Source of the DNA: Cyanidioschyzon merolae | Lineage: Eukaryota | DNA: 64,000 bases | Strand: one strand, 5' to 3' | NCBI GenBank assembly: GCA_000091205.1 | Contig: AP006487.2 | In this document: one piece after another, positions 1 through 46,204 of the stretch | How positions within the stretch are numbered: the stretch's first letter is position 1 | Layout: every line of letters begins with the position of its first letter | The notes under the pieces: generated by a model | Databases searched by the model: none | What the model was told of the DNA's origin: nothing | What the model saw: only the letters and a program-made list of their open reading frames with translations | Program-made: the position numbers and the translations under genes

Positions 1-1882
1 ACCGGCGTAGGTCGTATGCCGGATGGTTGAACAAGTCACAGATGCTGAGCGATACAAGAGTACGCGGAAAATAAGATTCCAAGGGTTTTGTGAAATGTGG
101 AAGCATCTCTATGACGAGAACTGACGCCATTTGCAACATTACTAGCATTCTTCGCGCGTTCGAATACGCTGGTTCTAGTCACGGGTACTGCACCAACACG
201 AAAACCCGGTACGGTCCCGGGACGGAGCACTCCCAAATGGCACCGCTGTCGCTCGAGCGCGCCTCTGGCCATCGAGAGGCGAGGTCTCCATGACAAGCAC
301 CTAAGGCCAGACCAGATTAAAATGGGATGCTGAACAGCTCGAGTTGCCTGTGCCTTTCGATTTCTTTTACAGACCCTTTTAGTAGTAGAGCCTCGAAAAT
401 TCGAGGTATAGGAGTGAGGGTTTACGGACTCACAGCTAGTTTTCGGATTCTTGTTCGTCTAGTCTGAGCGGGTACTTTGGCGATTTAGAGTCGGAAATTG
501 CTACAGAGTCAAGATGACTCACAATAGACTTGGACTAGTGCCAGAAAAGTAACCAATGACATCATCCAATTCACAAGTACAGACCACCACTGTTCTCTTC
601 ATAATAGATGTAGTGTGCTCATATTATATATTCTTTGTGTTCTCGATCTTTCTCTTACAGAGCAACTGGCTAGCGTACGAATGAGGTCGGCTGGATTGAT
701 GACGAAAAAACCTCGACGTCGTTTCTTGCTGAATTCTTCAAATGCTCGCGCCAAAAGTTTATGGGATGCGTCACTCCAAATCCTCGACTCTGTTCGGGAG
801 AGAAATCCTCCTCGTTTCGTCGCCATTGACGAAGCTGAATTCGACGGCAACATGAGAAAACTCACGGGAGGTGCTCACAGAGACTTCGTTCTCTTCTATC
901 TGCATGTAAAAGGGTCTTGGACTCGGATTTTAGTCATAGCAGTGATCGCTCCTGGAAGGGAATACCTCATCGCCCGGCAAGAAGGGACCGTAGCCGAATA
1001 GAAAAACAAGTTGTCGACTTGTTCTCCAGGCTAGATCCTGCTTCCAGTACTAGCTTGGTCAAGAACAACCTGGCATTCTACAAATACTTTATGGACTGGG
1101 GGAGCGTGCGCTTGTGCACGCAAAGCACGGAGTACTTGCCAACGGCACCGCCCAGACGGAGGCCATCGTCTTTGGGTATGGGGTGCGACGCAGAAACGGA
1201 GGACACCATCAAATGCAGACATCTGCATCCGGCAGGGGTATCTGTCGAGCGATAAAGCAAGTGCCGGCGGGCAACGCTCGGAGGAGGAGATATTGAGGAC
1301 AAACTGTAACACCTGACCACAGGTAAGTGTCACCACGACAAAGGACACACCAGGGCTGTATGTGTAGAAGATGAAAATGGCAAGCGAAGCGAATATCGTA
1401 TCTTCCGCCTGTTCATTCAGAGCGTCAGTAACAGCGAAAAGCAATGACCTTGAGAATGACACTGGTGTCAACATGCCTCGAGTTTTGACAACCAAACGGG
1501 AGCGAAAATGCAAACTGGTGTATTTGAAGCCTCAGATGATAGAGAGGAACGCGCAGCAGTCCCCGATAATGCCAGCAAAGGCTGGGCTCGATGAATGTGG
1601 TCAGATATCCAAACTTTCGCATATGCGCCCCTGTCAGGGGACGTTCCATTTTATGCTGAACTGAGTGTGAGTACCAGCGCGTGGCAGCGTACCACGCAGC
1701 ACAACCAGTTTGGGCGTTTTCGGAGCACCACTGGTGCAAGCTTGAGCTTTCAAGCTTGTTGCACGCAATAGCGTCTTGCTGTATGCGCTGAGTTGCGGAG
1801 GATCGTTCAAAGCGCTGGGAGCACGACGTGCAAGCGAAACTGAAAGCTCGCCGGGTGGAGAACGTTTCTGGAGCTGTTCGCT

Positions 1883-2746: not shown

Positions 2747-3939
2747 GATTGGCGGACTGCAATCCGGTTGAGGATTTGCTCACTGTGCACCATTGCCGAC
2801 TGCATATAGATGACGAGCCCCAGTCTTATGAAGACAAATGGTGCAAGCAGGCTTTCGGTCATAAAAATGGTTTCTTGGGCACTGGCAGCGAGCCTACGAT
2901 TCTCGCTTAACGAACGAACGGCATGCATCCGATTTCAGTCGAAGCGCTATACATTGGTGGATGTGTTGTGCACCGGTGCGGGTAAAGCGCCATCCTGCAT
3001 CGACAGATGAGCTGTACGTCTCGCAAAAAGCGTGCAGTATGGCATCGCCGGTTGAGATGTATGCCTCGCAGCTGACGCGCTGTATATTCTCAGGGATGCT
3101 GTATCCTGCTCTAAGGGAATTGCCACTTCGTCGTCCGTCCCTTTACAAGTTGCCAGCCGCGCTCACAACAGGAGCGAATGGGACATATTCCCTCGACAAC
3201 TGCTGACTGCGAAACGCGAGCCTGAGGTTGGTGTCGAACCTGAGAAACACCGCTCCGCTTTAGTTCTACTTGTGTAACCAGATTTCCGCGTGTATCCTTT
3301 CAATTAGCCACATGTCTGGCTTCTGCAGTACGTCTGGCCAGCCGCAGGAAGCCCCACGTCGCTACCTCAACCGATCAGCGTTCTCGCTTCCTACACGCCA
3401 CCGCGCAAGCGACCTTTCACGAGGATCGTTCACAGGGACGGTTCGTACCTACCCGCGCAAAATTGTGCGCAGAGAGAAAAAAAGCATACCTAGCGATAAC
3501 GAGGTCAACAAAGCCGCAGTCGCCCCGTGTCCAGAAAACCAGGTACCGCTATTCAAGGGCTGCGCGCTCGGCAGAGAGCTGTACTCGAGCGTAATCCTTT
3601 TCTTTCGCCGCTCCTTTACCCAAATTCCGCGAAAAGTTTTCCAGTTGAAAACTTTGGGACGGTGATTCCGCCCAAAGTATGCACGAGCAACCAAAGAAGA
3701 CTGCTTCGTGCTCATGAACGACTTTGGAGACAAAGCGCCAGCTCCTAGCGAAGCACCCACACAGCGCTAACGAATAGTTGAGCACTGCGCGTTCCTGTTG
3801 TTGCTAACGTCACCTGCACAGGATGCAGGCTCGTTTATGCCTCGAGCTGACACTCGCAGATGCATCACATGCCATACACTGCCTTCGTGCGAGGCCTGCG
3901 ACGTGTCCAGCATCTACAAGGTTGCACGACGGATGAAGT

Positions 3940-4120
3940 CTCCATTCCATACGGGAATACTCCACAGGGCATCCGCGAATGCTGCCCAGCATCCCTAGCT
4001 ATGCGGGATGCAGTTTGTCTCCATTCCATACGGGAATTCTCCACAGGGCATCCGCGAATGCTGCCCAGCATCCCTAGTTGTGCGGGATGCAGTTTGTCTC
4101 CATTCCATACGGGAATTCTA
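3940..4120. repeat. about 79-bp tandem repeat, about 2.4 copies ('tccattccatacgggaat(a/t)ctccacagggcatccgcgaatgctgcccagcatccctag...gcgggatgcagtttgtc')
   Basis: direct reading: near-identical units begin near 3941, 4018 and 4096 (partial). Confidence 0.8.
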
Positions 4121-4655: not shown

Positions 4656-6458
4656 ATGCGACGGAAGGCGACCAGCTGGAGTCCGATTTTGGCGTACGGC
4701 GTGTCCCTGACGGGCACAGAGCGTTGGTCTGCAGCACCGCGCACCTCAGTACAACTGCTTGGCGCTTTCCTCAGCTGGAGAGGTGCTCCAGACGGGTGCC
4801 GCTGTCGGCAATCTGGATCCAAAAACGTGCGCTGGTTAAAGGCAAGTGTGAGGCAGCGGCATCAGCCGTCGGGGGCCGAAGCGCGTCCGGCTCAGCCACT
4901 CGTTATCACGACGCCCTTGTTTTACGTCAACGCGGCTCCTCACATGGGAAGTGCTTACCCTACTATGGCCTGCGATGCGTTGGCTCGATACCACCGAATG
5001 CAGGGGCGTGCAGTGCGTTTTATAACGGGTACTGATGAGCACGGTGAGAAAATTGCACAGGCAGCTGCGGCTGCGGGTCGCACACCGCAAGAACACTGCG
5101 ACCTTGTTTCCGGGGAGTTCAGGGCGCTTTGGGCGAAGCTCAACATCTCATATGATCGATTTATTAGGACAACATCGGCGAACCATGCAGCCATGGTCAT
5201 GACATTCATGGAACGAGTGTTGCAGCGGGGAGACATCTACAAGGCAAGCTACGAGGGACTCTACTGTACCGGCTGTGAGGAGTACAAAGACCCCAAGGAG
5301 CTCGTGGAGGACACCCAGTGTCCACTGCATCTCAAGCGCTGCGAACAGCGAGCGGAGGAAAACTACTTCTTCCGTCTATCGCGATATCAGGCCCAGGTTG
5401 AGGCACTGCTGGCAAACGACGACTTTATGCGACCGGCCGAGCGCCGCAACGAGGTGCTCTCCTGGGTCCGCGAAGGTCTCCGCGATTTCAGCGTCTCGAG
5501 AGCCAAGAACCCCTGGGGTATCCCAATGCCGAACGATGCGAGCCAAACTATCTATGTATGGTTTGATGCGCTGCTCGGCTACCTGACTGCGCTCTTCGAT
5601 GAAGATGAACCGCCGCAGCTCGAAAAAGTCGAAGAACGCGGCTGGCCGGCGCACGTTCACGTCCTCGGAAAGGACATTACGCGTTTTCACGCGTGTTACT
5701 GGCCTGCCATGCTACATTCAGTAGGACTGAACGCACCCCAGCAACTATTTAGTCATGGATTTCTCACCAAGGATGGCATGAAAATGGGCAAATCCCTCGG
5801 AAACACCCTCGATCCTCATGCCCTGGTGGATGAATTCAACGCTGATGCAGTGCGATACTACTTCCTGCGTGGTATCGAGTTTGGTCGCGACGGTGATTTC
5901 TCGCGCGATCGCTTCATCCAGATAGTGAATGCTGAACTAGCGAATAGTGTTGGCAACCTTCTCAATCGAACGCTGAACCTTCTGAAACGACACAACAATC
6001 TATCATTGCCGGTTGTAGCACCAAGTGCGCATCCCTTGGCAGACCTTACCCGAACGTGCACCGCTGAAGCAGCAGCTGCATACGAGAAACTGGACTTCTC
6101 AGGAGCAGCCGAAGCGCTCATGCGTATCGCCTCGGAAGCGAACAGCTTCATCGATCACGAAGCACCATGGACCAAACTACGCAATCCAGAGACCAAGTCC
6201 GAAGCTTTTGCTGTTCTCGCCGTTATTCTCGAAGCCGTGCGAGTCCTTGGTGTTGCGTTGTGGCCACTGATCCCCGAGACCAGTGAGCGCATGCTGCGCG
6301 CGCTCTGCTACCCTGTAGCGGGGCCAGGCGAGGTAGCGAGCACAGCAGCGGCATTCGTGCCTTCGTGGCATGACACCGAGTGGAACGCCCGCAGAGACCT
6401 GTTGCAGCCTGGTGTGCGTTTTCGCACCCCAGAGCCAGTGTTTCCCCGTCTAGAATAG
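4656..6458 (+). CDS. methionyl-tRNA synthetase, bacterial/organellar type, with a roughly 90-aa Arg-rich N-terminal presequence
   Basis: 600-aa ORF. The class-I signature region 'PLFYVNAAPHMGSAYPT' and a KMSKS-type motif 'MKMGKSLGN' are present, with zinc-knuckle cysteines 'CTGCEEYKD...CPLH'. Confidence 0.9.
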   Translation: MRRKATSWSPILAYGVSLTGTERWSAAPRTSVQLLGAFLSWRGAPDGCRCRQSGSKNVRWLKASVRQRHQPSGAEARPAQPLVITTPLFYVNAAPHMGSAYPTMACDALARYHRMQGRAVRFITGTDEHGEKIAQAAAAAGRTPQEHCDLVSGEFRALWAKLNISYDRFIRTTSANHAAMVMTFMERVLQRGDIYKASYEGLYCTGCEEYKDPKELVEDTQCPLHLKRCEQRAEENYFFRLSRYQAQVEALLANDDFMRPAERRNEVLSWVREGLRDFSVSRAKNPWGIPMPNDASQTIYVWFDALLGYLTALFDEDEPPQLEKVEERGWPAHVHVLGKDITRFHACYWPAMLHSVGLNAPQQLFSHGFLTKDGMKMGKSLGNTLDPHALVDEFNADAVRYYFLRGIEFGRDGDFSRDRFIQIVNAELANSVGNLLNRTLNLLKRHNNLSLPVVAPSAHPLADLTRTCTAEAAAAYEKLDFSGAAEALMRIASEANSFIDHEAPWTKLRNPETKSEAFAVLAVILEAVRVLGVALWPLIPETSERMLRALCYPVAGPGEVASTAAAFVPSWHDTEWNARRDLLQPGVRFRTPEPVFPRLE

Positions 6459-10059: not shown

Positions 10060-10269
10060 TGCGGAGAAGCTTGTCTACTGGGTCTTGCTATAGCGGAACG
10101 CACTCATTCAGCGCTTTCCGTCCCTTGGTATCCGAAGCCGACCCAAGTGTCATCGTGTACGCGATGTTTCGTAAACCTCGCCGCGGTAGCCCGCGGATCA
10201 TGTACCGTTGCCTGGCCTCAGGATGGAGCGAGTTCGAAACGAAAACAGTTGCCTGCAAAAATATTAAAG

Positions 10270-10875
10270 AAAAAATGTGCCTGGTGGTGTCAGAATCCAA
10301 CAATTTTGGAACTAGAAAATAGTTTTCTGAAAAGATGTTGACAGAAAAAGTGCCTGGTGGTGTCAGAATCCAACAATTTTGAAACTAGAAAACAGTTGTC
10401 TGAAAAGATGTTGACAGAAAAAGTGCCTGGTGGTGTCAGAATCCAACAATTTTGGAACTAGAAAATAGTTTTCTGAAAAGATGTTGACAGAAAAAGTGCC
10501 TGGTGGTGTCAGAATCCAACAATTTTGAAACTAGAAAACAGTTGTCTGAAAAGATGTTGACAGCAAAAGTGCCTGGTGGTGTCAGAATCCAACAATTTTG
10601 AAACTAGAAAATAGTTTTCTGAAAAGATGTTGACAGAAAAAGTGCCTGGTGGTGTCAGAATCCAACAATTTTGAAACTAGAAAACAGTTGTCTGAAAAGA
10701 TGTTGACAGAAAAAGTGCCTGGTGGTGTCAGAATCCAACAATTTTGAAACTAGAAAACAGTTGTCTGAAAAGATGTTGACAGAAAAAGTGCCAGTAAGTG
10801 TCAGAATCCAACAATTTTGGAACTAGAAAATAGTTTTCTGAAAAGATGTTGACAGCAAAAGTGCCTGGTGGTTTG
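10270..10875. repeat. 73-bp minisatellite, about 8.3 tandem copies, two alternating unit variants
   Basis: unit 'aaaaagtgcctggtggtgtcagaatccaacaattttg(g/a)aactagaaaa(t/c)agtt(tt/g)tctgaaaagatgttgacag', with starts at about 10272, 10345, 10418, 10491, 10564, 10637, 10710, 10783 and a truncated unit at 10856. Confidence 0.9.
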
Positions 10876-11943
10876 TTCACATCGATGGTGCCTTCACGAT
10901 TACAGGCTCACTCCGATGGACGTGGGCCTCTCGCACGCCAAAGCGAGTATAGTTGGCTCCGAGGCGTACCACGCGTTGAAAGGTTGGTATCGTGCTCAAA
11001 TGAGCGCCCTATTGAACCAGTCCGTCTCTCGTCTATGTCAGAAACGACCGTCCAATGAAGCATTCTAAGACCCCCAGGAGTTTTCTCTGTAAAATCAGCA
11101 CTCGGGAGCGGAATCCTTCGGTGCTGTATGCAGTCCTGACGTGCAGCGCCGCCGCCTGCGACAGATACTGCTGCTGCTGCTGCGCCAGTTTGCATATAAG
11201 CGCGAGGTATTCCACGGAAGGACTGCTTTTCGCTGTTCTTTACCTGTTGATTGTATCGCTGGTATGTGAAAGCGATGGTGCGGCTTCAAAAGCATCGGTG
11301 TGTCTACGGTTTTACGGGGGCAGGGGGTTCCACGCAGTCCAAGCGGCGCTCACAAACGGATCGGCGAGCGCTCTGGGTTCAGCAAGCTCGCGTTTGCTGT
11401 ACAAAAAGAACGCCACTACAAAGCGGTGATCGTATTTCGAGAGAAAGAGGAAGCACCTGGATTCGATGCCGCGACTCGTAACAGTGCACAAGCGTATTTT
11501 GACAATGAAATGAGCATCGTAGATGACAGCATCGACGATATTTCAACGCACCATGGGATTCAGTGTGCAATCGGCGTGCCAAGAGGAGCGCCTAACAAAA
11601 GCATGCATCCACGGAACGTTCGTCAATGGTTGCGAGCACGCGCATAGGCTGCTCATGTGCCCCGAAAGAAGGCACAGGGCTAGAACGTGCAACAGGTGCA
11701 GCGCGAATTTGCCGCTACCCCTCATTCGCAGGAAACGACAAGCGGTGTGTCGGTACCCTGTATCGCACAACGAATACACATTTCGGAAGCAGAACAGGCC
11801 AACATAGCGCCTCTGCTGATGCATCAACAGGATTTGGAGAAAGCAGCACGCTGGCCTTTGTCTCTGAGCCGGGGGCTCACATCCGTATACCCCACCTGTC
11901 GTGCATTCCGCATTAGACACGATCTTGATGCATAGGTGGTGCA

Positions 11944-15040: not shown

Positions 15041-16629
15041 AGATTCCGTGCTTCAATATGCGGAAGCAGGTATCTCATCGTATGCGCTTTAGAATGCAGG
15101 GCATCGGTGGACGTTCACCTCAGAACGATGTATGCTGGATATTTGTGCCAGGGGCCCGTTTTTGTGACTTTTTCTTGTTCTCACAGGTATTCAAGAAAAG
15201 TAATGTGTCCTGTGAATTGGGGAAAGGTCGCGTAAAGACTGTATGGCGACACTGGTGGATTGCGAACAGGTACCTGACCCCTACCGGTCAGTTGCTCCAC
15301 GATCAGCCGGTGCATGAATCACTCCTCGCGTTGTCCTTCTCATGAACGTGGTGCACCCAAAACGGAACTTGTAAGACTCCATCTTCACGACTCTGTTCTC
15401 ATCAATCCATTTCACACATAGGATCCCTACGAAATACTACCGAGAAAGCAGCAGGGTGCGAGGTTCATTTGAAGTTGATTTGAACGGTGATGAAGATACT
15501 CGGATGGACGCAGAAAAAAAGCACGCCTCGACACGGGTGCGTCGCGCGCGGAACTCGTCATCCTCGAGTCGAATGGAGTCGCGATGGATGATCAGAGGCG
15601 GGGCAGATGTTCATTTCATTCAATGGAACGTCATTGGCGACCAACGAGGGACCTGACTACGGGAACTCAAAGACGCGCAACTCGCTGTTTGTCAGTCAGA
15701 GACAAGCGAGCATGCCGACACTTTTAGCCTTAGCTGCGATGCATCCGGACGCTCGTCTATAAATCACGAAATGGGCATGATCGTTTAACAATCAATACCT
15801 CAGTCGAAGCAGTGTGTGGTTTCGCTTCCCAGATTTCTCTGTCCTGTTCTTGAGCAATGACGATTCGCAACGCTCAGAGGTGGTCGCGGAGGACCCAGCG
15901 GAGACTGGTAGCGAGCGGCTGTTCGGGCCAGCGAATGCTGTCTAGCTCAGTCCAGTCAAAGGCGTAGGCGCTGTCGTCAAAGCGCCTAGTGTTCAGCAGA
16001 GGCACGATTCGCATTCTGGGCATTGTTCAGTTCCTGGATAGCCTGGCGGTCGGAAGGCTCGGTCAGCGATTGCTCGTCCAGACGATAGTATAGACGGGGC
16101 GCTGGTTTGCTGGTAAGCGAGCTCGCCTCCGACCGTAGCATGTGACTCCTGAACGTGATGCCTTTCGGAGCTCGCCCTGCGGCAACGAAGGTCACCTGGT
16201 CGCCAAGCGCTGCTCATGGACATGCCTCTTAGGCTAGACAGCAACAAAAACCCAAGTCTGGGAATTTGCAGCGTGAGCGGACGCCACCAACGCAGTTGAG
16301 GAAGCGGGTACAGCTCTGCTACTGGGGTGCAGGGGAGAAAACATCTCGGACCCTGGTCATGGACAAGGACTCTTCCGCATGTTTCAGCAACATGGCCTTC
16401 AACGGTTGCCTACCAGTTCATCTTGGCCGGCTATGGGAGCATATCTATTTTTAGCATTCGACGGGTCCCGACACCGCACCGTCAGGCCGCAGGAAACGGC
16501 GTATTTCGGATCCACTGCTCCGAACACTGCAGAGTACGTTGCATCGTTGTCTGAAAAAATCGGAACGAGTGCACGGGCATAGCACTGGCATCCACACAAA
16601 AGTTTGGGTCTCTTCCCAGTGCTATCAAC

Positions 16630-17530
16630 ATCAGGTGTTGAGGGCGTTCTCGGCAACCGCACGCTTTCCCTCTCTCTCCGTCTCTCTCGCGCTCTCTCTC
16701 GCTCGCTCTGATCTCCGGCTTCAATGGCGCAGATGGCTCTATTCCATATCGAGTCGTTGTCAGCGGTCGAAGGACGTTGAGGGCAGCTCGTAACTGCCGA
16801 TCTCGCCGCACCCAGCTGTTGTCGACGCATTCAAACTGCAGGCGGACGCTGCGGACCAGGAAGCTCATTCGTAAACAGCCTCGACACGCCTTTTGCACCA
16901 TAGACGCTTGGCTACGGTCACGTGTTCCCATGCGTTCACCGCACACCCGCATCCAACTCCTCGTCTGGCTCCTGCATTGCCTCCGCCTCCTCCGCCTTCC
17001 AGCGTCATCCAGTGGTGCCTGAACGCATGCTTCATCGCTCGATACATGACGCTGACCAGTTACCGACGTCTACCACGAATGTCATGCCTCATTATCGCGC
17101 TCGATGGCATACCCGACGAATCACGAGCATCTTCGGGGTGATCCGCTCCGCTCGTTTCTTGTGAGATGCAAGCGCAAGCACGCGCTGTTGTATTCGATAG
17201 AGGATTTGCAAAGCGCGATCTTGTCAATGGTAAAACAAGTACAACAAGCGAAATCCAGGCTGGAAAAGGCGTCGAAAAACTTCCAATCAATCTATGCTCC
17301 ATTCGTGCAAAGCGGTACCGCGCTCCCCAATGAAGTTGATCCCTGCATCGCCTCCGGTCCGGGTATAAGACCATTTTCCATGCTAACAGAGGAGATGGGA
17401 GCCTCTGGCACCATATCCGCTCAAAAGCGTGCTGCTGCTGCTGCTGCTGCTGTAGAATGTTGTCTCGTCCATGCTCATAGAGAAAGACGATTTTCTGTAT
17501 CGAAAGGAATCGATTATTTGACGCGCAAAC
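16630..17530. repeat. dispersed composite repeat, locus R1 (module B plus a diverged junction plus module C)
   Basis: About 16650-17275 is about 97% identical to 22700-23330, including a (CT)n-rich stretch. 17380-17480 shares module C ('ttttccatgcta...gctgtagaatg..cgtct.gtc.atg') with 26670-26790 and 37385-37445. Confidence 0.85.
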
Positions 17531-17538
17531 TATACTGA
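17104..17538 (+). CDS. hypothetical 144-aa protein encoded across the B/C modules of the repeat family
   Basis: This is an intact ORF. Its C-terminal half ('LEKASKNFQSIYAPF...PFSMLTEEMGASGT...AVECCLVHAH') is conserved at protein level, with indels, against the ORF 26545-26790 ('LEKFRFLYATSM...PFSMLNEAMGAAGT...AVEWRLVDEH'). Confidence 0.3.
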   Translation: MAYPTNHEHLRGDPLRSFLVRCKRKHALLYSIEDLQSAILSMVKQVQQAKSRLEKASKNFQSIYAPFVQSGTALPNEVDPCIASGPGIRPFSMLTEEMGASGTISAQKRAAAAAAAVECCLVHAHRERRFSVSKGIDYLTRKLY

Positions 17539-18699
17539 TTTTTCTGCATGAGCTCGTGAAAAAAGCCGTCAATGGATGAGGTCGAGCCCTTTTTCTCCGA
17601 AATCATAATACACAAAATGCTGCGCACACACGAGTTGCAACAGAAACATCCAATGTTAAGCAATATGTAGTTCGAGCATGCTACACGTAAGAAAAGGAGA
17701 AACGCGGATACTCGTACGTATCCATTGCATGATGATATCCACTACTGAACGAACCCTCGTTCTAGAGCGTCGCCAGCCATCCTGACTCAGATGACGTTAC
17801 AAAAAATCCTGCAGCAAAGCGTCCGCGGCGCGACTCCGAACAGGCTCCTGAGAATCCTAAAACTGCACATGAACACGTAAGCCCTTTTTCCTGCAGTTCG
17901 AATGTCGGCGTTGTACATCTTATAATGGTTCGAAAAATCGAAAGGCAGGCAGAAGCCAGCAGTTCTGTGCTCTATTTTTATTTGGCGCGGATGTCGAGCG
18001 CATGGCAACCAGCGACGCATGACGTCTGCCGCGGGATCGAGGACCCTATCCGAAGAACCCCAGTTGCGCAGATCTAGTGGGCAGTTAGGAGCAAACGACC
18101 GCCGTTCCCTTCTAGATTCCTCCATTCTTTCAAAGCTGTCCAGACGAGCCTAGCCGATGCCAAGAGAGGCTTGAGCGATCCACAACAACCATGCGGATAC
18201 CGCGGACGCCTTGCGAGGCCGTGACGGTGCCGCTACGCCTCAGCGGACTTCGACTAGAGACGAGGTTCGTTCAACAGGGAGATTCGGAGCTCGTCGTCGG
18301 CTTCGGACGCCAACTGGCATTACTGACAGCTTCGCTGCATGCAGCAGCGCGGACGGCCACACGAGAGGAACGCAGTGACCACAGCAAAACGGAGGCGCTG
18401 AGCACAGTCCGCCCCCGTTCACAGTCGCAGGAACATGTGTACAACGCTGTGGAGCGGCGCGAGCGACGCAGCGGCACGCACCACTGCGCAAGTACGCTGA
18501 CCACTGTACAGACTGATGGGTACACTTCACAAAAACTCTCTGCATCGAATGTAGCGTCGTCCAAGTCTCGAAAATACTACCAAATACCGCCTCTATCCGA
18601 TGGAAAACCAGGAGTGGTGTTGTTGGTACCCAGAGGACGCTGGAGCGGAGCATGCCACGCTTCCTCGGGTAGCGGGAGCCCCGTGTCACGCCCCTAGCA

Positions 18700-18860
18700 T
18701 ATGCAATATCCATGCATGAATGCTTGGATGCACGGATGCATGAATGCTTGGATGCACGGATGCTTGGATGCTTGGATGCACGGATGCTTGCATGCACGGA
18801 TGCACGGATGCTTGGATGCACGGATGCTTGGATGCACGGATGCTTGCATGCACGGATGCA
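18700..18860. repeat. 8-bp minisatellite (GGATGCWY)n, about 19 units
   Basis: direct reading of 'ggatgcttggatgcacggatgcatgaatgctt...'; it lies about 320 bp upstream of the dynamin start codon. Confidence 0.9.
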
Positions 18861-19180
18861 TCACCGATCATCAAAAAAAACCACCACAGCACCAGAAGCT
18901 AAGGCATCGATGAAATCGGACACGCTGGCACTGGACCTGCGCGCCATCGGAGCGCGCTGCTGTCCGTGGGCGCCACCGGCGCCATGCGCGCGTGCACGGA
19001 TCGCAGTGTGCCTTCGAAAGCGTTCGATGCAGGGCAGCGATCGCGCTGGTGTCCGCTTTAATGCTGTGTCCAGAATGTCCGAAACGGACGGTACGCCACC
19101 GTTCCCGGTGCTGCACGAAACGTTGACAACGAGGCTTGGCGCTCTGGGTACGCGTTGCTCGGGCGAACGCGACAGGCTTC

Positions 19181-21487: not shown

Positions 21488-22684
21488 TGCGCGTTCGTCA
21501 CATATTCGAACGATTGTAAACCAGTTTTGCCTCAGGCATCCGGGAGCAGGATCTCAGCACAGCGTTCTGGACGATGCTGGTCGCGTTTTGCGAAAAGCGT
21601 ATCCGCTGCAGCGAACGACTGCGAACGGCTCATGGATGCGTACGGTCATGCACGGGGGGCGCCCACAACGACACCCGCTCAGTGGTTTCGGGAAGGTGTT
21701 CTTGTTTTTTTCGTCTCCGAGTTTTGCGTTCGCACCGGGGCTGTCGACGCCACTGGGAGCATCCACGGCAGACTCGGCGCACGATGGAACATGAGAAACG
21801 CCCAGTATCTCCGAAGGGACCAGGGTTGATGGAATTCGGCAGTATGCCATGGAATGATGGACGCTTTCTCGGTCGCTTATAGCAAGCGTGCTACCCTCTT
21901 TCGTATATAGATTCGGTGGATCGAAAAGGCAGCTGCTCCTTGCACGCGTTCTACGATGACCGCGACGCTGGCAGGGCAGGTAACGCTCCCCGTATGCGTT
22001 CTAGCGGGTTGGCGTCGAGTGCACAGCGGCCCAGCGCTCGCCATCGTTATCCGAACGATATAGACGGGGTTCCAGACCGTACCCAGCGCTGAAGCAGATA
22101 CATGTGCGCCCCAGATATCGCCGCATCTCTGCAGCAACACCGACAAGCACCGCGTTGGCATGAGCGCTGGCCACCATCGGTAGTTGAGCACGCCCGGCAA
22201 TGCCGTGCACGCTGCTCCGGGCCGGAGCAAACCACGTGTTGTGTTTCGGACGCAAGACTCCTGGTCGATTGCTGCAAGTACGCTGATTCGATGCGTGTTT
22301 GCATGAGTTCAGTCGAGCGATATGGACAGGGGCGAGCTGCTGTGCCTTGTGCTGAATGCGGAGCATGCCCATCGCCTGGAACGGTGAATGTCGTTGCCGG
22401 TATGGATACCAGCGAGCTACCGTAACTGAGGATACCGGGAGCTCAGATCCATATAAGCCAAATCAGGTACATAGTGGTGTTGGTGGATGATATCAGCGGT
22501 AGCAGCGTCTTCTTAGAAAACAGGTATCTGCTGAAACAACAAGCGTTCTCTTGAACACGGCCGCACCGCCTGACGAGCGCTTGTCTCATTGCCTCAATAC
22601 ACGTGTTCGCGTAAAATGCAGCATGATGACTGACAATGGCGTATATGCTCAAAATTCGGCAGCTTTTCGAACGATTATGAGTAC

Positions 22685-23828
22685 CATCATTGGTGGGCGT
22701 TATCGGCAACCGCACGCTTTCCCTCTCTCTCCGTCTCTCTCGCGCGCTCTCTCTCTCGCTCGCTCTGATCTCCGGCTTCAATGGCGCAGATGGCTCTATT
22801 CCATATCGAGTCGTTGTCAGCGGTCGAAGGACGTTGAGGGCAGCTCGTAACTGCCGATTTCGCCGCACCCAGCTGTTGTCGACGCATTCAAACTGCAGGC
22901 GGACGCTGCGGACCAGGAAGCTCATTCGTAAACAGCCTCGACACGCCTTTTGCACCGTAGACGCTTGGCTACGGTCACGTGTTCCCATGCGTTCACCGCA
23001 CACCCGCATCCAACTCCTCGTCTGGCTCCTGCGTTGCCTCCGCCTCCTCCGCCTTCCAGCGTCATCCAGTGGTGCCTGAACGCATGCTTCATCGCTCGAT
23101 ACATGACGCTGACCAGTTACCGACGTCTACCACGAATGTCATGCTTCATTATCGCGCTCGATGGCATACCCGACGAATCACGAGCATCTTCGGGGTGATC
23201 CGCTCCGCTCGTTTCTTGTGAGATGCAAGCGCAAGCACGCGCTGTTGTATTCGATAGAGGATTTGCAAAGCGCGATCTTGTCAATGGTAAAACAAGTACA
23301 ACAAGCGAAATCCAGGCTGGAAAAGGCGTAGAAAAACGTTGACTGCAATCGATGATTCGCATTGCCGAGTTCAGCGCTATCTCAGCATTGCTATGTGATC
23401 AAGTCATCCAGGGAAGATCTCGGGTGTTTGCTCTCGTCCATCCAGCGGCGCGAATCGCTGTGCCCACAAATCCCCTTGAACCTGATTGGTAGAAAACCTG
23501 ATGCATGCAAAGTCTGCGCATACTCTATCTGTTTGACACGGAAAAGCATGCAGATTGCTACCCAGGACCTGGACCATGAAACCGGTTGGTTTACGAATCC
23601 TCGTTCGAGGGCGTCGCCATGCATCGGTCTTGCGGTGCCGCAACGATTTCCAGTGGCACAGCGCCCAGAGCGCCACGCCCAGGAGACAAGCGAGAATCCC
23701 AAGAATTCGGACGAATCTGTAAGACCCCATTGCTACACTTCGGTTATCGAAGCTGTACACCTGAACAGCATTCCGATAAAAATCTCAAGCCAGGACTAGA
23801 GCCAGCAGTCCAGTGTCCCATGTTCATC
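22685..23828. repeat. dispersed composite repeat, locus R2 (module B directly joined to module A)
   Basis: B is about 22700-23330 (matching 16650-17275). A is about 23345-23828 (matching 26816-27298 and 37466-37948). Confidence 0.85.
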
Positions 23829-24085
23829 GGACATAGGTATCGAAACAGACAATGTTCACTTCAAGGGTATCCTGATGTCTGCCCCTGCAATGCCTGAAAA
23901 ATCTCACTTGACGACACATCGACACGTCATGCACCATTCGAATGGTGGCGAATGACCAAAACGCGGCTGCAGAGCATCGCGCTCCATCCGGTCGCATCGC
24001 CGATACGCGCTGCGAATCCAGTACCGAAGCGTCCGAAACATGCCGAGGTAGACTCGTCATCGCTTGCGTCGACAACAAGGAACGC

Positions 24086-25320: not shown

Positions 25321-26589
25321 GAAGTCGTCGATTGCTGCGGCGGATTGCGCGGGCGCGATGCATTCGCGGTGGCGTTTTTCTCCAGTTGATGGTGTTCCAG
25401 CTGCAGATGCGTGCCACTGCATGTGCTTTTTTGCGATCTATAGCAGACGCGGTCGAATTGGATTCACTTGAAGGATTTAAAACATCTAGGAGAATGGTAT
25501 GGGCGTAAAAGTGGAGGATTTTGGAGCGTCGCCATCGCTCGGTTCTGCAAAGAAACGGGAACGATCCTCCTCTGACTGACGATCGTGCGACGAAGACGAA
25601 GAAGAACAGGGCAGAGTAGGCGAGAAAGTGTGTTTGCCTAACGAGATCATCACGGAACTGTAGTGGCAGAGAGGACGCAAGATCGAGGAATCATCGCAGT
25701 GGTGCGTTCAGCTTGCTGCGGAGCACATAGAGAACTCGTGAAGCGAGACTTCAACGCCGCCGTCGATACCAGAAAAGGTGCGGTACCGCAGACGAGAGAC
25801 GCGAGCGATGTGACGCGGGCGAAGGTTGCGGGCCAGCCTCACAGCATCGGCGTGTACGGGGTTAAGCTGAAGCCGATAGCAGGCGGCTGGTCAAAACAAG
25901 CAGGGAGGCGTCTGAGCGTAGGAATGTAAATATCATTCACGGTCGAGGGACATTTTTTGTTTTCCTGACCCTCTCCAGGATACAATGAAGCATGTTGCCT
26001 GACCAGGGCGTAAACGCTCAAGTTCGGGCTCTTTTTTAACGATCTTGAATACTTGCGTTCGCGGGCCTGTCTGTAACCGCTTCCTTTGCCTGTCTCTCGG
26101 ATTTCCGGCTTTCAATATGCGAGTCCTTTGTTTTCCTGTGGATCCGTTGTAATCAAAAGAAGGACGTTTATGGCAGTTTGAAGGCCCCGATTCTGAAGTT
26201 CCAGGCTGTTCTCGACACCGCTAATGCACAACTGGAGGTTGCGATCAACGCTTTCGTTGTGTTCTTGCGATCTTCTTTGGATAGAACTGCGGTGTGCTCG
26301 TCGCAGCGGTGAGAGTTGCCTGTCATCAGATGTTCGCATGCGCCCAACAAATTCCCTCGTCCGAGCGATTCCCCTCTGTCGTGGAAACGCTTGCTTCAGC
26401 GCTCGATGCATTGCCTCAACGGATACGGAAAGCGCGACTCGATGCTTTGCTGCGGTGAAGCCTCTGGGCGATGCCCGCGGCGAGTACCCTCGTTGCGGCA
26501 CGGCGCACGCGCACGCTGTTCCATAAGGCAGAGAATTTCGTGGAATGCACAATGTCGTCCATGATGAACCAAGTATCCGACGGGAAGTG

Positions 26590-27298
26590 AAGGCCTGGGT
26601 AGACTTGGAAAAATTTCGGTTCCTGTACGCTACCTCCATGCGAAGCAGTCGATATGATGAATCAGGTCAGAGTCCGATGCCCTTTTCCATGCTAAATGAA
26701 GCGATGGGAGCCGCTGGTACCGCATCAAAAGAGAGCTATGATGGTGATGGTGATGCTGTAGAATGGCGTCTTGTCGATGAACACATATAGGGGGAAAAAG
26801 GCTGGCCTTTCGGACGCAATCGATGATTCGCATTGCCGAGTTCAGCGCTATCTCAGCATTGCTATGTGATCAAGTCATCCAGGGAAGATCTCGGGTGTAT
26901 GCTCTCGTCCATCCAGCGGCGCGAATCGCTGTACCCACAAATCCTCTTCAACCTGATTGGTAGAAAACCTGATGCATGCAAAGTCTGCGCATACCCTGTC
27001 TGTTTGACACGGAAAAGCATGCAGATTGCTACCCAGGACCTGGACCATGAAACCGGTTGGTTTACGAAACCTCGTTCGAGGGCGTCGCCATGCATCGGTC
27101 TTGCGGTGCCGCAACGATTTCCAGTGGCACAGCGCCCAGAGCGCCACGCCCAGGAGACAAGCGAGAATCCCAAGAATTCGGACGAATCCGTAAGACCCCA
27201 TTGCTACACTTCGGTTATCGAAGCTGTACACCTGAACAGCATTCCGATAAAAATGTCAAGCCAGGACTAGAGCCAGCAGTCCAGTGTCCCGTGTTCAT
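26590..27298. repeat. dispersed composite repeat, locus R3 (module C plus module A)
   Basis: module C is about 26590-26815 and module A is 26816-27298. Confidence 0.85.
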
Positions 27299-28194
27299 TC
27301 TGACCCAGCGGTAGTACCTGATGCGTCGATTATTCGCGTCATGCGGTCGAGAATTCTCGAGCGACCACTCAGCCATGCAGCTGCGAGCGCGCTGACATAG
27401 CGTAGGCGCTCAGAAGCGGCGTCCTTGAATAACCTATCGGATGGTGCGCCCGCTGAACACCGTGCTCTATCAACGCGGTGCTGGGAGCGTTCAGACTACC
27501 CCAGGAACATCCAGTGTCGATATCGGAGCTCAATGCGGAGCTCGAATACGCGACTGGCGCTGGCCGTGTACTAGGAATATAACCCACTCACAATGAGCAT
27601 AAACGTATCATCTCAACCTACAAGAGAAAGAGACTATCTGTCAAGCAGCTTTTCGAAACTCCCCTCGAGTTTCTCAGACACGACGAGCAGCACGGCGGCA
27701 CGATGCAGCAGCATTAGATAGCAGACGTGCAGCTGGAGCACGGCGTCGTACCGAACCCGGCGCCGCACTGCGCACTTTCCAGCACCTCCGAGCCAACACC
27801 GTATGCTGACCCAAGGATACGAGAACGCTGCTCCATCTCCTTGCAGCGTCCGGAGCGGCGCTACATACGTCATGCTGGGCGATCGTCGCAGGCAAGCGGT
27901 ACGCCATAGGATCGTACGAACCAAGCATGATCTCTTCCAAAAGAAAGTATCGTTCGATCTGATCAATAGTGCTAGCTGGTAGAGCTTGGATGGATGGTGC
28001 GGTATCATACGCACGACTCTAGATACCGATATGCATCGCGTTATCGATCATTCTCTGTGGGCAAAGGCAACGATCCGTCGATGAAAAGATATCATCGGTC
28101 GCATCCTCGAGCCGACGCCCGCTGTGTGTGGCACGACAACGCCGCTCTGTCTCTGTGAAGCGACCGCATCGGCGCTATAGGTGCCATTGCTGTC

Positions 28195-36894: not shown

Positions 36895-37095
36895 CCCCGT
36901 CGGATGCAGAGGGCGCCCATTCACCCGCCCATTCGCCGGCCCATTCCGGCCCATTCACCCGCCCACCCCGCCCATTCGCCCGCCATTCACCGCCTCGACG
37001 GGCGCTTCATGCGTGCTGCCATCGCCGCCTCGACGGGCGCTTCATGCGTGCAGCCATCGCCGCCTCGATCTTTCGCTTCATGCGTGCAGCCATCG
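36895..37095. repeat. short tandem motifs: degenerate (GCCCATTC)n of about 10 units followed by an about 35-bp unit in 2.5 copies ('tcgacgggcgcttcatgcgtgc.gccatcgccgcc')
   Basis: direct reading of 36900-37095. Confidence 0.75.
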
Positions 37096-37379
37096 TTTCC
37101 CGAATGTGCACGGCAGCTCGTTGACACGCTCGTGTACACGCGGGATACCTGATCGAGCGCTCGGTATTCGGTGTGCGGTGAGGCATCCGTCGTTCCACGA
37201 GTTGCTTCCGAGTTCAACTGCCAGCACGTTCCCTCTAAGATACTGGTTATTCATTTGTTCTATTGTGGATCGAATGCGGGCAATGAGCGTCACGGGCTTC
37301 GCTTCTAGCGTCAGAGCGGTCGTCGACTGTGCGTGATGCGGCGCGTGCGCTGAGGGCGCTGGCTGGTACTTGGCCGTGT

Positions 37380-37948
37380 TCAGCATCGCGGATACCGTGC
37401 TGCTGCTGTAGAATGGCGTCTCGTCGATGAACACATATAGGGGGAAAAAGGCTGGTCTTTGGGACGCAATCGATGATTCGCATTGCCGAGTTCAGCGCTA
37501 TCTCAGCATTGCTATGTGATCAAGTCATCGAGGGAAGATCTCGGGTGTTTGCTCTCGTCCATCCAGCAGCGCGAATCGCTGTACCCACAAATCCTCTTCA
37601 ACCTGATTGGTAGAAAACCTGATGCATGCAAAGTCTGCGCATACCCTGTCTGTTTGACACGGAAAAGCATGCAGATTGCTACCCAGGACCTGGACCATGA
37701 AACCGGTTGGTTTACGAATCCTCGTTCGAGGGCGTCGCCATGCATCGGTCTTGCGGTGCCGCAACGATTTCCAGTGGCACAGCGCCCAGAGCGCCACGCC
37801 CAGGAGACAAGCGAGAATCCCAAGAATTCGGACGAATCCGTAAGACCCCATTGCTACACTTCGGTTATCGAAGCTGTACACCTGAACAGCATTCCGATAA
37901 AAATGTCAAGCCAGGACTAGAGCCAGCAGTCCAGTGTCCCATTTTATT
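37380..37948. repeat. dispersed composite repeat, locus R4 (partial module C plus module A)
   Basis: partial module C is about 37380-37465 and module A is 37466-37948. Confidence 0.85.
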
Positions 37949-38600
37949 TGAACATCTGTGTCGGATACGTCGTGTGAGCGCGTTCCTAGTCGCGCGGTCC
38001 AGGGTGCCTGCACACCGTTTTTCATCAATGGGGCGGAACAAACGACGTACCGCAAAAGACCCGGCCAGGTCATGTCCGTCGCAACAACGGAATACTCGCG
38101 TCGACTAATTCCACTGTTGCATGTCGTTCTTCTTAAAGCGCGCTGAGGAAACATCCAGCGTCTTCCAAACGCAGTTTGAGCAGGGATCGCTGATGCCGAT
38201 CCACGGATTCCAGGTGCACAGATCCCGCTCAAATACCCGGAGTTGATGCGCTCCTCCAGGTGATGAGCGTTGTGCCCTGTCGTGATCGCGCGTTGCAGTG
38301 CTGGAGCACCGTGTTCCTTCCGGTGGACGCTTCGCATGACATGATGAGCATAAACAACAACGGGGCCCGTGCAGGTAGATACGGTCAGCCTTGGCTCGGA
38401 AACCTGTGCACCGCTCGCGCTTACCTATGCGTTCACGCTGCTTCATGCGGGAACACAAGCGCCACCGGCACCACGTTCATTTCGTGGCATTCGGATGTCA
38501 TGCTGGAGCAGACGTATGCCCGTGACCACATAGGAAGCGCCCGATCCAAGTCTAAACGGGGCCCCAGCGACAACCTGCAAATCACGGTGCTCCGCCGTAG

Positions 38601-39139: not shown

Positions 39140-40800
39140 TAGAGGCACTGACCACGCAGCGGGTCGATGACGTACAACGCGCGTGGTTTTCTGTTTTGGC
39201 AGAACGTTGATCTGGACCATGGATACTAGATCCTGGGATGGATATTGCTGTTCGGGAAAGCGTCCATTAGTCTTCACTCTACCTCCGAATTCCATGACCC
39301 ATACTTCCCCTCGGATGTACTGGTCGTTTCGTACGTTCCATTGTGCACCGAGCGCATGCGATGGGCGTCTACGCTAGCGAATGTACTGCTGGGGCGGATG
39401 CAGCACGGACAGAGAACGGCTTGGCCATGCCATTCAGGCCGTCCACTCGAGGCGCAGTGCCTAGGGCGCGGAGTAGGAACTCATCCTCAACCTGGGAGCC
39501 AGCAAGCTGCGCAGACAGACCTACTGCCCGTGACAGTGCGGAGCGATTTGCTCGGATGATCCGGCGACCGGTGGAATACCTGGATGTAGCCTAATCACGA
39601 CTAGTCCAGGAAGAAAGTGCCTCGCGGGCGAGTTGCTCAGGTCGCAACCCCTGTATCCGCCGCGGGAGGCAGCACGAAGCACTTGCCTGGCACACTCGTC
39701 CGGCTCGTGGGACGCTCCACCTGGAAGGTAAACTTGCAGGAATGTGGAAAATTTTGCCCCCTTTTACCGTTTCTCGTCCAGGGGAAAGAAACTGTTATCG
39801 AGTTGCTCGGTAGTGGGTATTTTCTGTCTTTCGGCACAGTTGCAACGAGTAAGCGGTTACTTTCTGGTCTTAGCACCTCGGATGCCTCGTCGAATCATTG
39901 AAGACCTGTCCTGGACGTCCGGCGATGTCCTCGTACTGGACAACATGGCGTTTCACCGTTGCCCTTAAGTTCGAGCAGCAGCTTCTTATTCCTCCTCCGT
40001 GCACTCGTTTGTTGAACCGTATTGAAGGAGTGTTATCTTTCGGGAAATATCATGATCGCCCGAGTAAGCGAATCGCTGAAACGTTCAGTACACGATGACA
40101 CTAAGGCACATGTCGTCTTTTTTCCGCAAGTCCTTCGTCCTCCGGTAAGGTCCTAACCCAAGCGCATAAACAAGTGCGATCATTCCCAATAATAAAGCAT
40201 CCAAGGGATAAGCCAGAACAGACACTCCAGAAAGTCGAAAATGAGAGAAGCCAGCGGAGCGCTCCGGCGATAGAAACCCACAGAGAGCTGACAGAGCAGT
40301 AAATGGCACAGAAGAAACCAGTCCGAGGAATCTCTGGTTTGGCGAGATCAACCAGAAGTAAAATACATATAGAGTTCGTGAACCGCGACTCCAACGCCGC
40401 CATCAATATCACGAGATGTGCATTCCGAAACGCGACACCTGTGAAGCTCACACGAGCGAACTTTGCGGGACACCCCCCTGAGGATCCAAATGAACACGGA
40501 TAAACTGAAACCGATAACCGTCAACCAGGCAAAAAACGACCGCGATGCATCCGCGCCCCCCGAGTACCCATCTGTAGCCCGTCGACGTGAGACGCGCGCG
40601 ATCCGGACACGTCTCGTGAACGGATCGCGCGCGTGCATGCAGGTGCCGCTGCGCCACTCGCTCGCGGAACACCAACTGCTCCCTCGATCGGCGCTCGCGG
40701 GTGGAACGGCGCAGCGGCGCTGGGGCGCTCACCTGGCGGCCGTCGCACTCGACAGCACGCAGCGCTGCGATGCGTGCCGCATCCGGATCCGTGCGGCGGG
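39140..40800 (+). mobile_element. internally deleted Fanzor/TnpB-like element (copy 2): conserved left module, nuclease C-terminal relic, conserved 3' tail
   Basis: 39140-39730 shares four conserved blocks with 56630-57190. 40130-40503 is homologous at protein level to the C-terminus of the 58116-59706 nuclease. About 200 nt of non-coding homology follow the stop codon. The boundaries are approximate. Confidence 0.5.
40130..40503 (+). pseudogene. Fanzor/TnpB-like nuclease C-terminal fragment (RuvC-III 'NRDSNAAINITRC') with an in-frame stop
   Basis: Frame-1 translation '...LQKVENERSQRSAPAIETHRELTEQ*MAQKKPVRGISGLARSTRSKIHIEFVNRDSNAAINITRCAFRNATPVKLTRANFAGHP' aligns with '...LQRDEMEKCHRRSEDIEKYGPLTEERMERRAKVRGLVAFVSRNRGEKGVECANRDFNAAVYIRRCAVPEKRPEESTRANFVGHP' of copy 1. 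The RuvC-II region is degenerate. Confidence 0.6.
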
Positions 40801-43687: not shown

Positions 43688-46204
43688 CGCCCACGCGATA
43701 AGTTGTTCTGCAAACTGAGCATCACAACCCAAGACGGAGGAGAATTCTAAACCGTACCGATTTCCGACGGGCTCTGCACGCAACGCAACGCAACGCATCA
43801 CGTCATGAGTATGCGGCATCGCCTCATACGTCGGACGCGTTGTGCACGACTTCCCGATCGATGTTCAAGTGGTATTCGCTGTCGCGAGTGCATTCGGCCA
43901 CTGCCGTGGGTACTCAGACCGATCGATATGCTTTTCTGCAAGCGTCGCTGCTACCGCAGCCATCCTGGCTAGTCGCTCACGAGACACCGCGACGGCATTA
44001 GCGAACGTCCGCAACGCCGGCGTCCAGTGTTCAGGGGTTGTATGCCAAGCGTGTGCCGGCACCAGCGGTATTCCCGAGATGACTGCTTATCGTAGCACTA
44101 TGCAGATCTATCGACTTGAGCGTGGTCAACTCCGCGTCTAGCGTACGCGCTCTTCCACGCACTGCACAAAACGCACCCAAGCATTTCATGCTCGTGAAGC
44201 AGCGCTTCCTATAGCATCAGGTGACGCTGGTGTATGTGAGCAGCCCTGCACGCTGCGCATGGCATGGCAAAGGCGCGTGGCACGCACACGGGACACGTAG
44301 GTTGTGATGCGTGTCTTTCGGCGACACGCACGCACGCACGCATCCGGCGATGCATGAATGATGAGCGTGCCTGCGCAATCGGCGTTAGACAGGCAATTGG
44401 GCGCAGCTCGTGTCGTGTACGGCATCATGGACGAGAGCGAGGTGTTTTCCCTGTATTGGGCGTGTTTACTATCAAGGTGAACGTTTATACACACAGAGGA
44501 GAATCGCTGGTTTGGTGCTGTAGGCGCCTATGCTATGGTTTGTGCTGCTGTTTGAAGCGCGCGGCTCGTTCGCAGCGCAGTTTCTCGGGGTTCGCGCAAC
44601 GGTGCACCCTGCGTCTAGGCGTTGACTAGAGCGTCGAGGTTCCTCAGCGCATCGCTTCGCGTCGTCGCGGCAATTCGTTCAGCCGCGCGACACGCTGGTT
44701 CCCAAGGACTGACAGCGAGTCGCGACCCCGCAAACGGTCGACGACGCCTCAAGTCGACGCTCGTGGCGTCACTGCAAAGCTTTCCTGACTCTGTGGGGTA
44801 ACCGCAGCGGCAGCGCACCTGACAGAGCAGCAAGCATTTTTGGGGTATGCTCCGCATCCAGAGGTTCGCTGGATCGATTCGGCCTAATTTGCTTCCAGAA
44901 ACACCACAAGGGGACCGGGCCACGCAGAAGCGTATCTGGAGCAATCAGGGCCTCTTCCCTGGTATTTCGTTCAGTTGGCGCTTGCGGGACCTCTGGTTAC
45001 AGAACATCACTCGTACATCGTTAGAATACTGCGTGCACCTCGGGGGCTCTGAGTAAGATTTCCCTGTTCTGCTTGAAAGAAATCAAAATCTTGCGCAGCA
45101 TCCTGGGGCCATTCGCTGTCGCCCCGCCCCGTGTCGCATGATGGATGCATTATCCACGATACTGGATCATGGTACATCGATATCGTTCGCCATTTGACCT
45201 GGAAAATCTTTCCTGGTGTATATTCACAGCGCTTCAGCGTCGCAGCGTTACTGGAACGTATCGTATGAGTGCCGTGTCCCCGGTGGATTCCAATGCCCTT
45301 TCGCATGACCATTGCATGTTTCTATCGCAAGTCTTCCGCATTTCAGCAAAACGACCAAACTCCGTGGGAAACGAATCGCCCGAAAGCTCGCTCCTTATCA
45401 AGCTGCTGGACGCTCCGGAAGCATGACACGATTCCATAGGCTGATAGAGACATTCCAGTCTCGGTGCGGAGAGCGCGTGGGTTCATGGTCGCTTGTAGAG
45501 TCACACCATGGCACGCTTGTCACCCTCGATTGCCTGGTCAACTGACGTTCGCTTATCTTACAGTGAACCGTCTCATGCAAGCGGCTTTGTTGCATTCCGT
45601 TTTTATATACCTGTTTCAGCGGTAACACATGCACCCGGTGCCTGTATGTCATCTCGAACGCCTCGTTGAGAAGCATCCAGGATCGATATCTCGATCTCTC
45701 GTTTCACGCTCGTGTCGAACGAGCACGAGTGCAGCCCCTAAGCGCTAAAGCACACCCAGCACCATAGGCTACGAGCATCGAGCAACGCTCCGTGTCTGTC
45801 ATTTGCTTCCCCAACACATTGAAGTTGGCGAATGAGCGCGCCTTGCTTGTATACGACAGAGATCATTGGCAATGCCTGCACAATCCCGGATCAACCTGCC
45901 AACTGTCGCCCGCACGAGCGATTTGGACGCTGATCCACGGTGAAAATGAAGCACAGAGTGCATCCGCCGCTTTTCGGTGCGGTGCTCAGAGCGTCGACAT
46001 GGGTCCTGACGCCGTCCCTCTACTGTTCGATATACCTCTCGACGCCTATCATGATCGACGCTTGCAATCACCTGGCCCCGGAAAAGTCGACCAGTGCCAT
46101 CTAATTTCCATTCAGGCAACTGGCTCATCCCCTTTTGCTAGAGAGGTGCGTCGACGGTCATGACGCCCATCAATCCGGGATCCACGTCCACCGCGAAGTC
46201 GTTC

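Follow-up and report, generated by a model that had tools for sequence, protein, structure and literature searches.

Probable relics of an old non-autonomous DNA transposon family with transposase and Fanzor1-like remnants in the nuclear genome of Cyanidioschyzon merolae

We analysed a 64,000-nucleotide stretch of DNA (the window), part of chromosome 5 (528,682 bp) in the nuclear genome of Cyanidioschyzon merolae 10D, in which an earlier note had described dispersed repeats built of three modules (A, B and C) at four loci. With a probability of about 0.87, these repeats are relics of one old non-autonomous DNA transposon family. On the evidence of the family consensus, the true coding frame, now dead, is that of a DDE_3 transposase and lies on the strand opposite to the small ORF on which the earlier note had centred. 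The Fanzor1-like part of the element is a remnant and not a Fanzor gene. The family belongs to a known kind, the non-autonomous IS630/Tc1/mariner-type transposons, with a Fanzor1-like 3' part.

The copies in the window were counted by nhmmer with a profile HMM made from 13 copies. The search recovered a single dispersed family of ∼1.4 kb with six collinear copies, covering 7,440 bp (11.6% of the window). Four of the copies are full length, one has a 209-bp internal deletion (R2) and one is truncated (R4). Strands are given here for the transposase-coding strand, opposite to the ORF strand of the earlier note. R1 (16550-17985, minus strand; HMM positions 7-1374 against 16557-18000, E=0) is full length, retains remnants of its terminal repeats at 16550-16566 and 17970-17985, and contains the 144-aa plus-strand ORF. 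R2 (22607-23831, minus strand) aligns in two segments (HMM 6-661 against 22612-23336 and HMM 871-1374 against 23341-23846), and the 209 bp missing between 23336 and 23341 correspond to the C part. R3 (25975-27303, minus strand; HMM 2-1393 against 25977-27336, E=2e-300) is full length, and R4 (37323-37951, minus strand; HMM 797-1359 against 37323-37951, E=5e-127) keeps only the part encoding the transposase N-terminus. The census added two more full-length, old copies to the four loci known before: R5 (53385-54733, minus strand; HMM 7-1396 against 53392-54770) and, in the opposite orientation, R6 (312-1659, plus strand; HMM 2-1402 against 1657-261). The repeats of the earlier note are therefore real, but they are not a mosaic of independent modules: R1 and R3 are collinear over ∼1.4 kb, there are six copies, and beyond C, R1 goes on into a version of A that is diverged (roughly 58%).

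All six copies are intergenic. According to Pfam, the genes of the window are ordinary, single-exon and located on both strands; exact protein matches identify methionine-tRNA ligase BAM79253 at 4656-6458 and CME033C at 59970-61220. The window also contains several tandem arrays. At 10127-11002, between an SRP-receptor alpha gene and a short-chain dehydrogenase gene, a 73-bp unit is present in ∼12 copies with a core identity of 82-99%. At 18687-18884, roughly 300 bp upstream of the dynamin start (19181), there are ∼25 tandem 8-bp units (GATGCACG / GATGCTTG / GATGCATG), and all three near-identical metagenome contigs (L001-L003) break at this array. Short tandem duplications at 3938-4119 and 36915-37095 are of two types, a 79-bp unit repeated 2.3 times with 96-97% identity and a roughly 34-bp offset repeat with 82% identity, the latter at the 5' end or upstream of an AIR carboxylase/SAICAR synthetase gene.

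A majority consensus was derived from 13 copies, blind to any protein. Independent copies from the window and from metagenomes are 52-62% identical to each other (about 55%), and each is about 72% identical to the consensus. Identity to the consensus is flat along the element (0.66-0.76 per 50-nt bin), without a conserved island. This uniformity suggests one old burst followed by neutral decay, rather than a constrained gene or RNA. A codon-phase test, run first on four copies, where it was underpowered, and then on 13 copies, gave substitution fractions of 0.272, 0.257 and 0.264 in the three phases (p=0.72; 1,136 substitutions, 12 independent copies against the consensus). The equal fractions indicate that neither the frame of the small ORF nor that of the transposase, nor any other, has experienced purifying selection since the copies inserted. 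The long open frames of the consensus lie on the strand opposite to the small ORF.

The minus strand of the consensus matches the DDE_3 profile (PF13358) with E=8.1e-10 and 39.2 bits (cut-off 28.6), and weak matches to a Tc3-type helix-turn-helix domain (HTH_Tnp_Tc3_2) are located upstream. The conceptual consensus protein, corrected for frameshifts, is 43% identical (E=2e-49) to P0037, an intact DDE_3 transposase of 322 aa, and also matches several decayed ORFs from Cyanidioschyzon-like contigs. In tblastn searches, P0037 aligns to individual copies on the predicted strand: residues 3-231 to R5 (54657-53965, E=9e-21), residues 55-192 to R6 (546-962, E=9e-6) and residues 1-35 to R1 (17918-17814, E=3e-5). 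The minus strand of R1 still reads 'SMSMDETTFYSS...GYGARGSHLLC*HGKWSYTRT'. Raw three-frame translations of the single copies R1, R5 and R6 have no Pfam match, because these copies are too decayed to reach significance. Of the 146 positions of the DDE_3 profile, the match spans 3-117, and the transposase part extends barely beyond its second catalytic motif, 'FIMDNIAFHKSS'; the third catalytic motif ('PPYSPWFDPIE' in P0037) is absent from the consensus. The element is therefore an internal-deletion, non-autonomous derivative, and its movement would have required a transposase acting in trans.

In another frame, the minus strand of the consensus matches Cas12f1-like_TNB (PF07282, the former OrfB_Zn_ribbon) with E=3e-5 to 7e-5, the score of 23-24.5 bits being just under the Pfam gathering cut-off of 26.3. 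Towards the C-terminus, the translated consensus has the sequence '..YRMEQRALACAADRVLAEG..KKPVIVGYGIGRGNGGGH..PVKGMYRAMKQAF..VVDAWEHLTTAKCHRC..FRLCMKC..NRDLKAAINILRL' and includes the motifs 'QRALA..AADR', 'VIVGYG', a 'TT..C..C ... C..C' zinc ribbon and 'NRDLKAAINIL'. The [TS][TS]xx-C4-...-RD signature that defines Fanzor/TnpB (Bao & Jurka 2013, PMC3627910) is present as 'HLTTAKCHRC...FRLCMKC...NRDLKAAINIL'. The fragment is collinear with residues 561-695 of the published CMe-1 Fanzor1 (BLASTP, E=1e-4; 23% protein similarity) and is 46% identical (E=2e-36) to P0044, a Fanzor-like C-terminus from a metagenome contig; a PDB sequence search with the fragment returned nothing. Full-length Fanzor1/TnpB proteins have 500-900 aa. 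The consensus encodes only ∼190 C-terminal Fanzor-like residues: the RuvC-I aspartate and the N-terminal/REC part are absent, and the DNA upstream codes for the transposase, in a different frame. Because of this difference in frame, the exact junction of the two parts can be placed only tentatively, and the parent may have had either a complete Fanzor1 or just a short C-terminal ORF, such as that of P0044.

A search for terminal inverted repeats, proposed in the earlier note, located them exactly where homology between the copies stops. The ends of the consensus match at 16 of 18 positions as an inverted repeat (ATCAGAATAAAATGGAAC versus GTCAGATTAAAATGGAAC). The terminal repeats are best preserved in R6, whose ends read TCAGCATAAAATGGAAC and CCCATTTTAATCTGG. 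Members of the Tc1/mariner/IS630 superfamily are expected to be flanked by a TA target-site duplication. The flanking dinucleotides of 8-10 old copies, which at ∼27% divergence offer little power, show no consistent TA; target-site duplications are not recognisable because the copies are so old.

Further copies and relatives were found by scanning metagenome contigs with a 25-nt degenerate pattern and then picking true copies with nhmmer. At least 120 loci matched the pattern, mostly by chance in gut and soil metagenomes; ∼10 true family loci are among the matches listed, and the true copies are on hot-spring contigs. One of them, L070, is the orthologue of the R1 locus from another strain (98.2% identical over 4.9 kb); L057, L100, L011/L080, L062, L065 and L052 carry other, unrelated insertions of the family. 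Two contigs show how the transposase and Fanzor-like parts are arranged in relatives. On L124 (472-2696; ENA ERZ27265945 k141_39263), a second ORF begins 48 nt after P0037 and runs for at least 403 aa until the end of the contig truncates it; its Fanzor1 motif 'IETDGV' occupies the residue position that this motif has in CMe-1 Fanzor1; this element is probably an autonomous relative of the family. On L127 (1-1114; ENA ERZ27301260 k141_1566108), which has a GC content of 33% and comes from a different, AT-rich organism, the C-terminus of a DDE_3 transposase (..PPYSPWFNPIEN..) is followed after 240 nt by the 216-aa ORF of P0044. P0044 comprises only the C-terminal third of Fanzor1, with the zinc ribbon and NRDFNAAINIL, and may be a naturally short Fanzor-C ORF rather than a deletion artefact. 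Both layouts fit a parent element with a transposase followed by a Fanzor-like gene.

The window itself contains a longer decayed element at 45383-48033 (minus strand) in which a transposase C-terminus (P0037 residues 215-310 against 47425-47138, E=0.002) is followed by a Fanzor1-like region (CMe-1 residues 211-689 against 46768-45407, E=1e-10 and 2e-8), which is again the order transposase then Fanzor1. The plus strand at 15137-16030 and the minus strand at 47208-48033 are homologous (E=1e-45).

The earlier note had proposed that the C module encodes a small protein under purifying selection and had offered a lineage-specific multicopy gene family as one interpretation. The ORFs at 17104-17538 (144 aa) and 26545-26790 (81 aa) are indeed present; open frames of 81-160 aa in R1, R3 and R5 share 'PFSM..E', 'AVE..V' and 'RR', and the ORF is intact in the second strain. 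However, the ∼1,100 substitutions are spread equally over codon phases (p=0.72), and most of 11 copies have only a short or interrupted version of the frame. The translations of C are alignable, as claimed, but not in a frame-specific manner: comparable tblastx matches occur in several frames and on both strands, many with internal stops. Between R1 and its orthologue on L070, the ORF has 6 differences in 435 positions (2 non-synonymous, 1 synonymous and one 3-nt indel); for the same strain pair, the whole element has 24 in 1444 and an adjoining real gene 0 in 740. In its divergence the ORF is therefore no different from the non-coding DNA around it. A concatenated query of seven raw ORF translations, taken from both strands, has no homologue in 5.8 billion protein clusters, five small ORFs are absent by exact look-up from a collection of 15 billion protein sequences, the small ORFs are not annotated in strain 10D, and the plus-strand frames of the consensus, including that of the earlier note, have no Pfam match. 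The significant transposase match is on the opposite strand, and the element has terminal inverted repeats. By the criteria of the earlier note itself, purifying selection on the C frame is refuted. A small protein is thus scarcely credible, and the gene family is unsupported; the earlier note's fallback, a non-autonomous mobile element as opposed to satellite DNA, is right in kind.

The similarity between the translations derives from the transposase. The 'AVE..LVD' of the small ORF is the antisense counterpart of 'IDETAFD', and 'PFSML.E.MGA.GT' that of 'APRGSRLFCLHGKG', which corresponds to the DDE_3 motif 'w.a.kG.r'. The best-conserved block of C (17449-17473, minus strand) encodes the first catalytic Asp motif, (V)AIDETAFD. 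A pattern drawn on this block, GCYGTMGAATNNNGNNTYGTCNATG (GCYGTMGAAT...GTCNATG), has five copies in the window against 0 expected by chance, and its reverse complement in the consensus encodes IDETAFDSS. The 144-aa ORF on the plus strand at 17104-17538 is thus an open frame antisense to the decayed transposase and not a gene; it and the alignable translations are what results when the transposase codons, inherited by all copies from their common ancestor, are read on the wrong strand. A TAG does end the ORF in R2, as the earlier note had stated, though not exactly at the B/A junction: it results from a C-to-A substitution relative to R1, located a few bases ahead of that junction.

Retention of the copies for host use, for example as promoter, terminator or chromatin-boundary modules, is very improbable. 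All six are intergenic and most have remained full length despite their age, and an interspersed element of this genome has been reported as transcribed (PMC1955436). Against such a role, decay is uniform over the whole length with no conserved island, the copies occur in both orientations and beside 5' as well as 3' gene ends, and Rfam has no match across the window. That interspersed element, present in 253 copies of roughly 3.2 kb, has a truncated ORF weakly similar to WSSV WSV486 (PMC1955436). Bao & Jurka (2013, PMC3627910) described CMe-1A, a 3,169-bp Fanzor1 element with ∼150 copies, and TE-N2_CMe with ∼70 copies, both without terminal inverted repeats and of unknown class, and listed a Fanzor1 in WSSV, which is why we equate these elements with the 253-copy element. 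The repeats could be pieces of CMe-1A or TE-N2_CMe, since the published element is abundant in the genome (PMC1955436, PMC3627910), its fragments directly adjoin several of the family copies, and both have Fanzor1-type C-terminal motifs. We rejected this assignment and regard it as extremely unlikely: the CMe-1A consensus (supplementary file 2 of PMC3627910) has no nhmmer match to the family consensus at E<=10, CMe-1A maps to entirely different coordinates in the window, and the Fanzor parts are only 23% similar at the protein level. The lack of nucleotide similarity indicates that the family is distinct from CMe-1A. In the window, CMe-1A is represented by a full-length copy at 56670-59860 (plus strand) and about eleven fragments, at 39197-40052, 40221-40513, 25378-25609, 25662-25921, 18201-18578 and 37135-37320 and, on the minus strand, at 28304-28103, 28078-27789, 44813-44446, 46628-45383 and 21892-21672, together 12.1% of the window. 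At 39759-40022 (plus strand), within sequence that nhmmer attributes to the CMe-1A 5' part, there is a weak transposase-like match (P0037 residues 210-252, E=4e-4; P0040 residues 213-307, E=0.002).

The unequal identity of the modules is most likely a result of recent gene conversion between neighbouring copies, judging from their identity profiles. Self-BLAST confirmed the near-identity of the two B copies (16642-17280 versus 22695-23337, 98.4% over 643 nt) and of the A copies (23341-23827 versus 26813-27298, 97.7%, and versus 37463-37942, 97.9%). The C copies are diverged, as the earlier note held, between R1 and R3 (17172-17584 versus 26503-26893, 61%), but R3 and R4 are 95-98% identical in C and share a tract of 98.3% identity (26748-27290 and 37398-37940, self-BLAST). 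By sliding identity, R1 and R2 are 98-100% identical only from 16642 to ∼17290 and 45-68% identical elsewhere in the element; R2 and R3 reach ∼98% only over 23341-23827, and R3 and R4 only over 26748-27290. The putative conversion tracts are thus the B tract (16642-17296 in R1, equivalent to 22695-23354 in R2) and the A tract with the end of C (26748-27290 in R3, equivalent to 37398-37940 in R4 and, from 26813, also to 23341-23827 in R2). We infer ectopic gene conversion because the homology between these copies, which lie 3-11 kb from one another, continues in a diverged state beyond the high-identity tracts.

The A and B blocks might instead stem from recent transposition or local duplication of young chimeric sub-elements. 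Sharp boundaries common to the three A and the two B copies would fit such an origin, as would the resemblance of R2 to a B+A chimera and the metagenome contigs that break at the tracts or join through them, as expected of young multi-copy sequence. We nevertheless consider it unlikely, since the tracts lie inside longer elements whose remainder is only 45-70% identical between the same loci. The tracts also stop 15-50 nt inside the element ends: in the A tract, identity falls to 46-64% ∼15-20 nt before the terminus, the terminal nucleotides, which are decayed terminal repeats, differ among R2, R3 and R4, and the left terminus of R2 is ∼70% identical to that of R3. No flanking duplication was seen. 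Under gene conversion, homologous recombination between copies 3-11 kb apart would have copied tracts of 0.5-0.65 kb, producing the 98% identity of B in R1/R2 and of A in R2/R3/R4. These events would be more recent than the burst of the family, and R2 would also have lost 209 bp, the deletion being located at the junction of its A and B tracts. In one metagenome contig (L111, 1-1776), the common A tract connects the R4 left flank (36982-37940) with the R3 right flank (26748-28067); unless the contig is chimeric by assembly, another strain has such a recombinant or deletion.

The nearest known systems are PUl-1 and PGv-1, mariner/Tc1-type elements with Fanzor1 (PMC3627910). Like the family, they have a DDE transposase followed on the same strand by a Fanzor1/TnpB-like region, and short terminal inverted repeats. 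They are 3.4-4.4 kb long, whereas the family element measures ∼1.4 kb, both of its proteins are partial and all copies are dead. CMe-1A shares with the family its genome, intergenic and dispersed location, similar age (copies 72-80% identical to the consensus) and collinear Fanzor1-type C-terminal motifs. CMe-1A is reported to lack both terminal inverted repeats and a transposase (PMC3627910), and we found no transposase relic in its consensus, whereas the family has terminal inverted repeats and a DDE_3 remnant. With the IS630-family/DDE_3 transposase P0037, the family has in common an N-terminal helix-turn-helix and the motifs 'IDETGF', 'GYA.KG.R', 'SVIAA.SS.GE' and 'MDNIAFHK', but its consensus lacks 'PPYSPWFDPIE' and everything beyond. 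The copies resemble MITEs in being non-autonomous, multi-copy and intergenic with terminal inverted repeats; they are, however, twice the usual MITE size and represent an internal-deletion derivative with recognisable coding remnants. A published survey detected no MITEs in C. merolae (PMC3964958). The inventory of Nozaki et al. (2007, PMC1955436) contains 26 retroelements and eight transposase-related elements resembling bacterial transposases, and the family may correspond to some of these eight 'class II' elements. A description of the family was not found in the literature searched, which did not extend to Repbase.

These observations are consistent with an ancestral element of ∼1.4 kb that would have encoded the N-terminal two-thirds of a Tc1/mariner/IS630-type transposase, with the helix-turn-helix and the first two Asp motifs, directly followed by the C-terminal third of a Fanzor1/TnpB-like protein, and bounded by terminal inverted repeats of roughly 17 bp, TCAGAATAAAATGGAAC ... 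GTTCCATTTTAATCTGA. It would have spread in one old burst, after which the copies may have decayed neutrally to about 27% divergence from the consensus and about 55% pairwise identity. More tentatively, the family and the element at 45.4-48.0 kb may together represent a Cyanidiophyceae lineage of IS630/mariner elements carrying Fanzor1-like genes, undescribed in the literature searched, with a deletion derivative amplified far beyond the reported eight class II elements and 0.7% transposons and with copies still exchanging sequence by ectopic gene conversion; we regard this combined reading as possible, with the balance somewhat against it.

The analysis corrects two impressions that such repeats can give: a seemingly conserved small ORF in a repeat can mirror a dead transposase gene, and 'modules' of unequal identity can be gene-conversion tracts rather than building blocks. 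It is also of value for the repeat annotation of the 'simplest' eukaryotic genome, usually described as almost transposon-free: ∼24% of the window consists of transposon relics (11.6% from the family and 12.1% from CMe-1A), compared with the 0.7% plus 5% reported for the genome. Finally, the family lends further weight to the view that DDE transposons were the vehicles of Fanzor1-type genes in C. merolae.
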